The notes beneath the pieces were generated by a model, which saw nothing but the letters and a program-made list of their open reading frames with translations, had not been told where the DNA came from and did not search any database. From assembly GCA_038216025.1 (NCBI GenBank), contig JBBQQK010000003.1:1-33424 (forward strand): a DNA stretch of 33,424 nt, read 5' to 3'. Below, piece after piece: positions 11,391-13,379 of this stretch. Position 1 is the first letter of the stretch. Every line of letters starts with the position of its first letter. Source of the DNA: Patescibacteria group bacterium. GTDB lineage: Bacteria > Patescibacteriota > UBA1384 > XYA2-FULL-43-10 > 1-14-0-10-43-13. The position numbers and the translations under genes are program-made.

Positions 11391-13379
11391 ATGAGGAGAG
11401 GGAAGCTTTTTAAAAAAATATTCATCGTCATCTTTACGGTATCCTATTTTTTATTTTATTCAACGCCATCTGTTGAGGCAGTCGTTCCGTACAATTTTCA
11501 ATTCAACCAAGCTGTTTTGTCTGAATCAAAAATTGCCGGGACACCTTTTATGCTGAACTTTGAATCATTTAACCCTAACAACGGTTTATATTTGAATTTT
11601 TCCGGGTGGGTATCCCTAAGCGCATCAAATTCTAAGGGCCAGGTGGTGATCACTCCTCCTATGGTTTATGTCTCAGGGGGAGAATTTAACGGCTCTGTTA
11701 GAATAGATGCGGCAGATCTTAATACCACTATTACTGCTTCTGCTGTGGGATACAGTGATTCCGTAAGTTCAGCTTTTTGTATTAACGCAGATCCAAGTCA
11801 AATCTTCTTGGGCATTGCCGGAGGAAACAATCAGGTTGGAAGAGTTTCTAATGTGCTGGAGAACTTAATAAAAGTTCGTCTTACCGATCGATACGCTAAT
11901 CCAATAGAAGCAGTCGGGGTCATGTTTAAAGTTGCTAGCCAACCGAATGGAGCAGCTGGTTCTCTCAGTGCTACCAACCCTAGTACAGACGCAAATGGAT
12001 ATGCTTTAACCAGCCTCACACTCGGCAATAAAGCTGGAACTTACCTAATCACGGCATCTCTCTTGGGGTCGCTGACTACTTTGGCCGCTCCGGTAAATAT
12101 TTACGAGACGGCTATTCCAATGCCTCTAAGTAATCTGTCTGTAAATCCAATTCTGTCTGTCGTGCCAAGGGGAGCGCAACAAGTTTTTCAGGCTAGCGGA
12201 TTTGATCGGTTCAATAATCCTGTGTCTTTGGGAAATGTGTCTTGGAGCGTTACTAATGGAGGAGGTACAATTGATAATAACGGTATCTTTACAGCTGGCA
12301 CAAAGGTAGGTAATTTTCAAAACACTATCAAAGCATCTGTAGGCGCAGTGGGGGCTGCTGCTTCGGTCAGCATTATAAGGGAAGATGACGAGTCGGATAC
12401 CCAGAAGACCGAGAATGAAGGCAGTCAAGGCGCAGGCGTTCCAGGTGATACTGGCGACCAGGGGGAATCCGGTTCCGGAGTCGCTAGCAGTGGATCTGGC
12501 AGCGGACAATCTGGTGTTACACAGAAAAAGCTTGAAGGCCAAGGCGTGCTAGATCGAGTTGCCTTGTCTCCCAATATTATTCAAAGTGAAATTAACACCA
12601 GAAATCCAATTATCGCAACTGCTTATGACAAATATAATTTTGCTATAAACGAAATTAACTTCAAGTGGTCGCTTGAGGGAGAGGTTGGAGAGCTTATTTC
12701 TGACACTAGCGCCAATGCTGAACTTGTTCTACGCAATCAACCCGGCAATGGAAAAATTACAGTCAGCGCTATTCAAAACGATATCTCGAAAACAGCTGAA
12801 CTGGTGGTTGCATCGAAACCAACACCTGGAGGCGTTTTTATTTTTGATGAGATAAGCGGACCCAAAAAGGCCGGAGAATCTTTCAAGATTAAAATCACCG
12901 CAAAGGACAATAGCGGCAATATATTAGCTGATTTTAAGGATCAGGTTGCCCTTAGGGATTCAACTAATACAATGATACCCACGGCAATAAATGAATTCAA
13001 AGACGGCGTATGGGAGGGGGATATCACAATCTCGGTAGGTAAAAAGAATGTGGTTATAGATGCTATTTCTCCAGGTCTAAATGGAGTATCTAATACGTTT
13101 GAGGTGACGGGGGAGCCTGCTCATATCGCCGGCGCAACGTCGGGCGCAGGAGCCTTGGGGTCAATCAAATTTTTGGGGGCTGGATTTGCCGCCGGTTTTG
13201 GCATATTGGGCTCAGCTCTCGGAATGGCATGGATGGCAGGCAGAGGATTGGAAGCAATCGGAAGAAATCCTATGGCCAAATCGAAAGTGATGGTTAACAT
13301 GTATTTAGGACTGATCCTCGGCCTTATCACCGGTGTTTTGTCTTTGGCTGCTGCCTTTATTATAGCTAGACCAGGATAG
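11391..13379 (+). CDS. secreted multi-Ig-like (invasin/Big-like) protein fused to a C-terminal ATP synthase subunit-c-like hairpin lacking the ion-binding carboxylate
   Basis: Signal peptide ending VEA, Ig-like repeats (DRYANPI, DRFNNPV, DKYNFAI) and a Gly/Ser linker. The last ~73 aa are [66 protein letters not shown]. The gene occupies the atpE position directly before atpF. Confidence 0.85.

Follow-up and report, generated by a model that had tools for sequence, protein, structure and literature searches.

A second F-type ATPase operon in Patescibacteria headed by a surface protein fused to a c-like hairpin without the ion-binding carboxylate: a candidate ATP-driven surface motor

The second F-type operon and its neighbours

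The DNA analysed here (33,424 nucleotides of a Patescibacteria, or CPR, genome; this whole stretch is referred to as the window) carries a cluster of F-type ATPase genes set among genes for predicted surface proteins. The features are as follows.

7309..7866, + strand: cohesin-domain protein, secreted or anchored, 185 aa (Pfam Cohesin 34.9 bits; N-terminal hydrophobic segment; syntenic)
7863..8912, + strand: cohesin-like surface protein, 349 aa (signal peptide; C-proximal TM segment 252-271; syntenic; no Pfam match)
9002..9937, + strand: candidate chaperone-like surface protein, 311 aa (WxLIP_PGBD 24.6 bits, under the cut-off of 27.3)
9962..11293, + strand: Ig-like protein with C-terminal dockerin, 443 aa (Pfam Dockerin_1 29.7 bits; syntenic)
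11391..13379, + strand: fusion protein, 662 aa (signal peptide, five Ig-like domains, linkers, C-terminal c hairpin)
13152..13379, + strand: c-like hairpin of the fusion protein (Gly-rich helix 1, RNP loop, Leu645 at the position of the ion-binding Glu)
13480..13995, + strand: subunit b-like peripheral stalk, 171 aa (weak NCBIfam subunit B matches, E 1.5e-5, far under cut-off)
13952..14536, + strand: subunit delta (OSCP), 194 aa (cut-off of 22.3 bits for Pfam OSCP exceeded, at 59.2 bits)
14526..16502, + strand: subunit alpha, 658 aa (Pfam; GDRKTGKS and SVSRIGG present)
16506..17390, + strand: subunit gamma, 294 aa (Pfam ATP-synt 148.7 bits)
17405..18799, + strand: subunit beta, 464 aa (catalytic motifs intact, including EDELSE)
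18781..19098, + strand: short subunit epsilon, 105 aa (Pfam ATP-synt_DE_N only; beta-sandwich without the C-terminal helical domain)
19328..20551, + strand: candidate pilin-like secreted protein, 407 aa (CPR_Pam_pilin_C, NF058581, 18.5 bits, under the cut-off of 55; signal peptide)
20634..21749, + strand: candidate pilin-like secreted protein, 371 aa (same model, 24.5 bits, under the cut-off of 55)
25585..26520, + strand: second candidate chaperone-like protein, 311 aa (35% identical to 9002-9937; WxLIP_PGBD 24.7 bits, sub-cut-off)

The gene for the fusion protein heads an operon of the order c-b-delta-alpha-gamma-beta-epsilon, without subunit a. Its boundaries are not given by a promoter and terminator scan of positions 6800-22000, as the sites found (41 promoter-like against 35.3 ± 4.7 and 17 terminator-like against 13.4 ± 3.3) were no commoner than in shuffled sequence. 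A complete ordinary operon, a-c-b-delta-alpha-gamma-beta-epsilon, lies on another contig of the genome (C10), and relative to its products the second-operon alpha is 48%, beta 51% and gamma only 26% identical. The second operon has the Walker A and B motifs, the catalytic Glu motif and the alpha Arg-finger motif, and its alpha is extended at both ends, by about 130 Lys/Glu-rich aa at the N-terminus and also at the C-terminus. The b-like protein has a single N-terminal TM helix (residues 1-24 by hydropathy scan) and its gene keeps its position in relatives. The short epsilon is not peculiar to the window, four of four orthologues stopping at an identical ...LVGF, and the ordinary epsilon on C10 has 138 aa; in other bacteria the C-terminal helical domain is the inhibitory part of the subunit. 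In a quick IQ-TREE analysis the second-operon betas formed three supported clades on longer branches than the ordinary betas, a single origin being possible at a support of 64 (the label ‘ordinary’ was verified from gene context for C10, L086 and L115 and assumed elsewhere, and L082, which duplicates L035, was left out).

Neither the window nor the syntenic clusters gave a match to subunit a (PF00119). The source genome (G000) has a single match, adjoining the ordinary c on the other contig, and the same arrangement of one match beside the ordinary c was seen in four of five genomes in each of two sets and in all five of the complete or near-complete genomes with two beta genes. The exception in both five-genome sets is G030, whose a and c genes were probably lost to an assembly gap, since its ordinary-type beta lies 542 bases from a contig end. 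A second c-like gene was looked for beside the second operons of G272 and G123 and none was found.

All the accessory proteins have an N-terminal signal or TM segment by hydropathy scan. The 9002..9937 and 25585..26520 proteins each begin with a signal peptide, have a beta-rich body and end in a TM anchor; a third paralogue is on contig C42, look-alikes of the former in the ESM Atlas are commonest in Saccharimonadota, and it is uncertain whether the latter belongs to the system. In Atlas look-alike clusters of the 7863..8912 protein, 31% and 81% of the members carry Cohesin; we treat this as a lead only. The two pilin-like proteins are paralogues (29% identity). An AlphaFold2 model of the 371-aa protein (pLDDT 92) has two beta-sandwich domains, for which Foldseek returned MSCRAMM adhesins, CFA/I pilins and PapG, all generic adhesin or pilin folds, with no Pam structure among the PDB matches listed; PDB sequence searches with both proteins gave nothing at E ≤ 1. 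The pilins and chaperones are thus candidate assignments, drawn from sub-threshold family matches and generic Ig-like folds. The thirteen-gene order is intact in G030, G038 and a Berkelbacteria record (L044, the one locus returned by a search of genome contigs for related loci), and nearly all of it is present in G366; synteny holds up to the contig ends in G034, G026 and G007, and in G052 the same genes are clustered but rearranged. Synteny of the cluster therefore spans CPR families. No pilin or chaperone match was found near the giant fused variants of G065 and G069, so that a link to Pam-like pili is not universal.

A c-subunit hairpin with a hydrophobic residue at the ion site

Pfam recognizes Big_1, Invasin_D3 and ATP-synt_C in the 662-aa protein. 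An AlphaFold2 model (mean pLDDT 84.8) has five Ig-like beta-sandwich domains (residues 34-132, 138-242, 248-329, 387-476 and 482-573) followed by the hairpin, with a disordered Gly/Ser/acidic linker at residues 333-378 and a further flexible linker before the hairpin. Foldseek with the whole model returned generic Ig-domain strings only, and a PDB sequence search with the ectodomain only two chance-level matches. The Ig arm is predicted to be extracellular, because the basic loop of the hairpin should face the cytoplasm, and the c hairpin is thereby predicted to be the membrane anchor of a secreted protein.

The hairpin (13152-13379) comprises the last 75 residues, 588-662, and the stop codon. 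The last 85 residues searched alone match Pfam ATP-synt_C (PF00137) with E 1.3e-9 and 38.6 bits (cut-off 24) over 60 of 60 profile positions, and the model places helices at 590-621 and 627-659, so that profile and model agree on a two-helix hairpin of this family; of the family's other marks, the buried helix-2 carboxylate that binds H+/Na+ is replaced by Leu645 and no subunit a is encoded alongside. An earlier note on this DNA had proposed that the domain lacks the essential carboxylate, on the grounds that a count of 20 residues from the loop Arg lands on Leu and that the second helix has no acidic residue. Both observations hold: the loop Arg-Asn-Pro is R625-N626-P627 (13263-13271), R625 plus 20 is L645 (codon CTT, 13323-13325), and no Asp or Glu was found across residues 628-662. 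The proposal itself was confirmed by alignment, as BLASTP against the 75-aa ordinary c of the same genome (38% identity, gapless) sets L645 against the Glu of AFAEA, and a phmmer search of solved c subunits (4bem c1 and c2, 1yce and 3zk1) again puts it opposite the ion-binding Glu. The realignment that might have moved an acidic residue into the site was not forthcoming, all of these independent alignments having Leu there. As judged from sequence and model, then, the C-terminal hairpin is an F-type c-subunit fold with a hydrophobic residue at the ion site.

Forty-seven homologues (382-818 aa) share the fused architecture. The ion column is hydrophobic in 47/47 (L31/I9/V5/F2), helix 2 is free of Asp and Glu and the RNP is invariant in every one, and stand-alone c subunits of relatives have Glu at this column in 27/27. 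This consistent loss of the carboxylate with retention of the loop is the pattern that the earlier note had named as a sign of neofunctionalization in orthologous fusions, and a strain-specific lesion as the cause of Leu645 is ruled out, the Glu-less state being universal among homologues. In an alignment of 39 of the 47 (A1; P0020, which is truncated, and P0028-30, P0032, P0036, P0041 and P0045 left out) G602, G604 and G607 of helix 1 are invariant and A597, A600 and G611 are at least 90% conserved. The loop columns are 100% conserved, so that the docking loop and small-residue packing helix are kept, as the earlier note had held. Conservation within the protein is highest in the hairpin, with a mean identity to the window protein of 58% against 44% for the ectodomain; a second alignment (A2) comprised 19 of 25 matches and five locus translations. 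Among 147 new representatives listed from a 50%-clustered library, the 14 that end in the hairpin all have an Asp/Glu-free helix 2, and half of these are 1,386-2,672 aa long. Giant and short fused variants of other families are Glu-less too. The short hairpins of G312 and G188 had no Pfam match at E ≤ 1 and were recognized by eye from a GRNP loop and two hydrophobic helices. A profile search with the full-length alignment against 1.84 billion representatives gave 23,698 matches at E ≤ 0.001, a count that is no gauge of family size as giant Ig-repeat proteins swamp the search.

A putative ATP-driven ring and the alternatives to it

From these results we consider it reasonably probable that a second, dedicated F-type ATPase, driven by ATP and uncoupled from ions, has this hairpin as its rotor (c) subunit and a ring bearing extracellular arms. 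The hairpins would assemble into a ring, with gamma and epsilon from the same operon docked onto it. When gamma, epsilon and four hairpins were submitted to complex prediction the outcome was graded ‘weak support’ (score 0.38, best control 0.01), the runs agreeing in at least 68% of contacts and the partners having pLDDT of at least 74. It should be noted that 58 of 80 solved complexes reach the mark applied, as do 2 of 110 mismatched pairs, that at scores of 0.60 or less only 7 of the 80 solved complexes passed together with both mismatches, and that, as similar complexes have already been solved, the pass may reflect mere likeness. The second F1 would hydrolyse ATP, as suggested by its intact catalytic motifs and by an epsilon without the C-terminal helical domain, and hydrolysis would in turn allow it to turn or torque a ring in which every subunit bears an extracellular arm, alpha3beta3 being held by b and delta. 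Work would then be delivered outside the cell, to the cohesin/dockerin proteins, the membrane-anchored chaperone-like proteins and the Pam-like pilins, and could assemble, turn, tension or retract a surface apparatus. On this sequence evidence the second ATPase probably spends ATP on extracellular movement rather than on energy production. Two further suggestions of the earlier note are covered by this scheme. That the ring is uncoupled from the ion gradient is supported by the loss of Glu, by an operon that lacks a, and by the position of the genome's single a beside the ordinary c on another contig; that the hairpin may retain a mechanical or structural role fits the conserved loop, the intact alpha and beta motifs and the b/delta stalk.

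There are points against a motor. In known F-ATPases subunit a holds the b helix beside the ring, and with a absent and the anchor of the stator uncertain, the ring would not necessarily turn against the cell as a whole. The inner ring of a c-ring is built from the N-terminal helices, and at least 10 arms of 570 aa (up to about 2,500 aa in the giants) would need to exit via the ring centre, which counts against a motor. So do the sub-threshold pilin and chaperone matches, the giant variants of G065 and G069 with no such match nearby, and the conclusion of the Pam preprint that pili grow without dedicated trans-envelope machinery. A more elaborate version is possible but doubtful. In it an F-type ATPase would have become a rotary or winch-like motor; its Glu-less ring, with no ion channel, would rotate or twist a circle of Ig-like arms of 150 to about 2,500 residues, and the movement would build, turn or pull back the pili or adhesive fibres with which CPR bacteria cling to their hosts. 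Such a motor would stand alongside the flagellum and archaellum as a further prokaryotic rotary surface machine.

The absence of the subunit that positions the stator also speaks for a static platform, in which the Glu-less hairpins only oligomerize as an anchor or scaffold for the Ig arms and F1 acts as an ATP-dependent switch or brake, for example in signalling or in holding tension. The flexible, disordered linkers of the arms fit such a scaffold, as does the argument of the Pam preprint that pilus growth requires no dedicated machine (PMC13278184, as far as its text was available). We nevertheless think this unlikely, given that peripheral (b, delta) and central (gamma, epsilon) stalks and catalytic motifs are all conserved, a costly outfit for a mere anchor, and that the docking loop is invariant. 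That loop is nearly identical in fused and ordinary c (EAIGRNP), a likeness expected if a few fused Glu-less hairpins were built into an ordinary Glu-bearing c-ring, with subunit a supplied in trans and the rotor still coupled to ions. A mixed ring of this kind has a precedent in Acetobacterium woodii, which mixes c1 with c2/c3, and A. woodii c1 (4bem_J) is the top solved match, with Gln rather than Glu at the aligned position of its second hairpin. It is distinctly improbable here: the operon of the fused c includes a complete F1, b and delta of its own, subunit a and the ordinary c belong to a separate, complete operon, the two hairpins share only 38% identity, and gammas with 26% identity suggest separate rotors.

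If instead the second operon were a decaying duplicate, the loss of Glu would be one symptom among others, and the longer branches of its betas could be read in this way. Open frames, catalytic motifs and synteny maintained in several families, together with a Glu-less state that is universal and goes with an invariant loop, largely refute this explanation, which we regard as very improbable. That loss of a stop codon or chimeric assembly created the fusion, or that Leu is a base-calling error, is scarcely credible: the architecture recurs in 47 homologues, fused frames of 655-769 aa are present in 7 of 61 related genomes, and to turn CTT into a Glu codon (GAA or GAG) takes three base changes, which one sequencing error does not explain.

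The ion-uncoupled, ATP-driven ring thus remains the reading we prefer. An ion-binding carboxylate and subunit a are what make an F-type rotor an energy converter, and both have been lost in a widespread and conserved lineage in which the catalytic head, the two stalks and the docking loop remain and the rotor subunit is fused to a protein of the cell surface. A turning ring would pass on the work of cytoplasmic ATP hydrolysis, by mechanical means and across the membrane, to a structure outside the cell. For F-type enzymes such transmission is known only by analogy from the mycoplasmas, where the membrane part is unrecognizable. The motor would also be a candidate power source for the host-contact apparatus of these ultra-small episymbiotic bacteria. 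At least two beta-class matches were found in about 54 of 401 sampled genomes (hand count), and atp gene counts in CPR genomes will overestimate energy metabolism. A literature search confined to article texts and abstracts found neither a Glu-less or fused c nor an a-less second F-type operon in CPR bacteria.

Comparison with known systems

The N-ATPase, too, is encoded by a second F-type operon that is laterally mobile and accompanies the ordinary one, and it translocates Na+, according to the parts of the account of Dibrova et al. (2010, PMC2881411) available. The window operon resembles it in being a second F-type operon and differs in that the N-ATPase is ion-coupled. N-ATPases have their own a and a c with an ion-binding site, no fusion, and an atpDCQRBEFAG-type gene order. 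Identity with the N-ATPase is ruled out for the window operon by the absence of subunit a and of an ion site and by the order c-b-delta-alpha-gamma-beta-epsilon. The best solved match to the window hairpin, A. woodii c1 (PDB 4bem, E 1.5e-11), shares with it a Glu-less F-type c hairpin, there within a working rotor. Unlike the window protein, c1 is a double hairpin of which one keeps Glu, and it has no extracellular domain; it is mixed with Glu-bearing c2/c3 beside subunit a in an ion-coupled enzyme.

The surface genes recall the Pam pilus system of CPR bacteria (Troman et al., bioRxiv 2026, PMC13278184, consulted in part). As described there, Pam clusters are CPR-specific, encode proteins with signal peptides and combine two-domain Ig-like pilins with chaperone-like proteins that end in a C-terminal TM helix. 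The predicted architecture of the 9002..9937 protein matches that described for PamC/PamD, and the co-location of the Pam operon with ATP synthase subunit genes is repeated in the window cluster; the window's pilin-like genes differ in matching the NCBIfam model only under its cut-off. In the portion of the preprint available, the neighbouring genes are taken as a link to ATP production and metabolism, section 8 has the pilus growing without dedicated trans-envelope machinery, and the terms ‘c subunit’, ‘subunit c’, ‘c-ring’ and ‘ATPase’ each occur 0 times (PMC13278184). If our reading is true, the ‘ATP synthase components’ reported there beside pam operons would be a dedicated motor and not a metabolic link.

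Another close parallel is with the Type 2/3 ‘F1-like X0’ ATPases of Mycoplasma (Beven et al., 2012, PMC3369863; PLoS Pathog 2026, PMC12994834), of which the CPR second ATPase would, by analogy, be a functional counterpart. As far as the available parts of these sources go, both are second F1-derived ATPases beside an ordinary F1Fo in small-genome, host-dependent bacteria, both are without subunit a, and both are linked to the surface, the mycoplasma enzymes through gliding or MIB-MIP antibody cleavage. Genes for alpha-, beta-, gamma- and epsilon-like subunits are clustered in each, with the ordinary F1Fo operon separate. The mycoplasma systems also have a 12-TM ‘Protein 1’ and a small cytosolic ‘Protein 2’, as described in those parts, and the window cluster has neither; its ORFs have at most two well-separated hydrophobic segments each by hydropathy scan, so that none encodes a twelve-helix protein. 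The architecture of the 662-aa fusion protein is that expected of an X0 component, its likeness to the mycoplasma two-helix anchor being, in the sources as available, one of architecture alone. In contrast to X0, the CPR system has kept b and delta, and its two-helix anchor can still be recognized by Pfam as c. On the more elaborate reading above, the Mycoplasma X0 anchor might even descend from such a fused c.

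Leucine at the ion site of the fused c hairpin

The c-like hairpin forms the C-terminus of a larger protein encoded in the window:
11391-13379, forward strand, fused c ORF, one open frame of 662 aa
13152-13379, forward strand, c-like hairpin, last 75 codons of the 662-aa fusion plus the stop codon

Pfam searches matched the final 85 residues to the full ATP-synt_C (subunit c) profile (38.6 bits, cut-off 24, E 1.3e-9) and the N-terminal part to Big_1 and Invasin_D3. The earlier note had read Leu at the position of the ion-binding carboxylate and no Asp or Glu in the second helix, and both observations were borne out. 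The loop is R625-N626-P627 and 20 residues on lies Leu645 (codon CTT, 13323-13325), which stands opposite the ion-binding Glu of the genome's ordinary c subunit in an ungapped BLASTP alignment (38% identity) and aligns by phmmer with the ion-binding Glu of the solved A. woodii c1 and c2, I. tartaricus and F. nucleatum c subunits; helix 2 contains no acidic residue. A base-calling slip at Leu645 was ruled out, as CTT is three changes from a Glu codon. An AlphaFold2 model of the fusion (mean pLDDT 84.8, pTM 0.45) consists of a signal-peptide helix, five beta-sandwich domains, a disordered linker (333-378) and, on the C-terminal side, a flexible Gly/Ala/Ser linker followed by the helical hairpin (590-621 and 627-659). 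By the positive-inside rule, the signal peptide and the basic character of the loop would place the loop on the cytoplasmic side and the Ig arm on the exterior, an orientation shared with ordinary c subunits.

The same architecture was found in 47 proteins of 382-818 aa (the homologue search being limited to similar lengths), and loci of related genomes supplied 27 stand-alone c subunits, aligned together with them. At the ion column all 27 ordinary c subunits carry Glu and all 47 fused homologues a hydrophobic residue (L 31, I 9, V 5, F 2); helix 2 of the latter is free of Asp and Glu in every case, and neither set shows any change in the loop R, N and P. Twelve fused-c rows cut from loci represent six genes, each present twice, and show L, M or F or are trimmed before the ion column. 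The consistent loss of Glu with RNP kept supports the neofunctionalisation proposed earlier, and the alternative that orthologues retain Glu therefore fails; judged from these alignments, the missing Glu is a feature of a whole family and no lesion. Within a 39-sequence fused-c alignment the loop is 100% conserved, and mean identity to the window protein is 58% in the hairpin vs 44% in the ectodomain. Where helix 2 begins on the cytoplasmic side, all 39 aligned proteins have the same Asn and Tyr (N636 and Y638 of the window protein, 13296-13304), and ordinary c subunits have other residues at the matching positions.

Among 147 new representatives listed by a profile search, 14 carry the C-terminal hairpin, D/E-free in each, and seven of these are 1,386-2,672 aa long. 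Across 401 sampled genomes of the phylum, long ORFs of 631 to about 2,590 aa with the hairpin at their C-terminus occur in several unrelated families and short versions (256 and 281 aa) in others. Giant variants of ~2,500 aa with the same Glu-less hairpin at the end lie at loci L078 (G069:C1, 2400-18847), L114 and L121 (G430:C1) and L073 (G065:C8). The short variants (L110 5823-6590 in G312, 256 aa; L111 11842-12684 in G188, 281 aa) begin with a TM or signal segment, have a small ectodomain and carry a GRNP hairpin that lacks Glu. They stand at the head of b, delta, alpha, gamma and beta; their divergent hairpins gave no Pfam match at E <= 1. The G188 cluster continues past epsilon with pilin-like and chaperone-like genes.

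A second F1 operon and its distribution in CPR genomes

Directly 3' of fused c, on the same strand and with short gaps, lie genes for b-like, delta, alpha, gamma, beta and epsilon subunits, including:
b-like protein, one N-terminal TM helix, weak NCBIfam subunit B matches
delta, OSCP
14526-16502, alpha, 658 aa vs 511 aa for the ordinary alpha
epsilon, 105 aa

No subunit a was found in the window cluster, and the only match to its family (PF00119) in the whole 1.06-Mb genome is on contig C10, where the ordinary operon is complete (I-like, a, c of 75 aa with Glu, b, delta, alpha, gamma, beta and a 138-aa epsilon). G+C is 0.394 on both C10 and C3. Identity to the ordinary counterparts is 51% for the window beta and 48% for the window alpha, and in four of four aligned orthologues epsilon consists of no more than a beta-sandwich. 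The second-operon alpha is extended at both ends, by ~130 aa rich in Lys and Glu at the N-terminus and by a further stretch at the C-terminus; its G007 orthologue reaches 798 aa. The extension could be a putative cytoplasmic stator anchor. On C10, a 128-aa ORF (14607-14993, reverse strand) lies between the ordinary alpha and gamma.

The full cluster runs cohesin-like, cohesin-like with TM, chaperone-like with C-terminal TM, Ig/dockerin, fused c, then b, delta, alpha, gamma, beta, epsilon and two paralogous pilin-like proteins. This order is complete in relatives G030 and G038 and in a named Candidatus Berkelbacteria record and nearly complete in G366; G034, G026 and G007 agree as far as sequence reaches, contig ends cutting the cluster, and the more distant G052 has the genes rearranged with adjacency kept. 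After the 2,571-aa fused c of G069 come an fn3 protein, then a MacB-type ABC pair, then b to epsilon in the same order; the G069 and G430 clusters contain an fn3 protein and/or MacB-type ABC ATPase and permease ahead of these six genes. At L075 (G115:C22, 1186-5895) a 629-aa fused c precedes a 178-aa protein and a cohesin/Big_13 protein, with 6-phosphogluconate dehydrogenase next, where F1 genes are absent, and two beta-class matches lie elsewhere in that genome. Of ten fused-c genomes examined, nine have exactly one subunit a, adjoining ordinary c, and in the remaining one, G030, an ordinary-type beta lies at the edge of a contig. Exactly one subunit a was likewise counted in each of five genomes, complete or nearly so, that hold two beta genes. 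At least two beta-class matches occur in 54 of the 401 genomes (E <= 1e-90, hand count), a figure for beta matches alone, genomic context having been checked in the individually named genomes. In a quick tree second-operon betas form three well-supported clades with longer branches, a pattern compatible with one origin or with several.

Possible roles of the a-less assembly

The c hairpin is conserved, selected, Glu-less and fused to a surface protein, and it is encoded with a dedicated F1 with both stalks in a cluster that lacks subunit a, an ordinary ATP synthase being encoded elsewhere in the genome. In the reading we prefer, the fused hairpins would assemble into a ring, the second-operon F1 would hydrolyse ATP, and torque or rotation would pass to the extracellular arms and then to the neighbouring surface apparatus. 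A complex prediction for the operon gamma and epsilon with four hairpins scored 0.38 (best control 0.01), a pass rated weak by the tool that may reflect memory of solved F-ATPases. The same parts might form a static platform, which we regard as unlikely while giving it appreciable weight. A mixed ring with ordinary c and a is less probable still. That the second operon is a decaying duplicate we consider very improbable; the window beta and alpha keep Walker A, the GERTREG catalytic Glu motif, Walker B, the DELSE-type loop and the alpha Arg-finger motif. An artefact is hardly credible. The Leu-for-Glu observation of the earlier note is real and its interpretation supported, and the finding reaches beyond the hairpin to a whole a-less F-type ATPase system, widespread in CPR bacteria.

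Surface genes and known systems

The surroundings of the cluster are as follows:
643-3207, 3921-5648 and 5737-6855, upstream, P-type cation ATPase, DnaG primase and sigma-70 factor
21788-25482, reverse strand, two large genes just past the pilin-like genes, 578 aa with dCache-like sensor domain and 651 aa (no family match)
26501-33094, glycogen/alpha-glucan set, alpha-glucan phosphorylase, GlgX-type debranching enzyme, GT4 glycogen-synthase-like enzyme and GH57 enzyme

The pilin-like paralogues matched NCBIfam CPR_Pam_pilin_C weakly (18.5 and 24.5 bits, cut-off 55); one gave a confident model (pLDDT 92) of two beta-sandwich domains, with MSCRAMM adhesins, CFA/I pilins and PapG as the nearest solved folds. 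The cluster's chaperone-like protein has two other paralogues (33-35% identical), at 25585-26520 in the window and at 4816-5673 on contig C42. The 311-aa proteins combine a signal peptide and a beta-rich body with a TM helix at the C-terminus, a build like that given for PamC and PamD of the CPR pilus system Pam in the available text of its preprint (PMC13278184). In its main text that preprint takes neighbouring genes as coupling to ATP production, concludes that there is no dedicated trans-envelope machine, and contains 0 occurrences each of c subunit, c-ring and ATPase. A 2026 preprint on rotary-ATPase evolution mentions in its methods 'unusual genomic neighborhoods' of CPR beta homologues, which its readable text does not describe. 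Our literature search, limited to text outside the supplements, found no account of a c subunit in CPR bacteria that is Glu-less or fused, and none of an operon there that lacks a. Among F-type-derived surface-motor ATPases, the closest functional precedent for the CPR system, from the portion of the source available, is the mycoplasma Type 2/3 'F1-like X0' ATPases.
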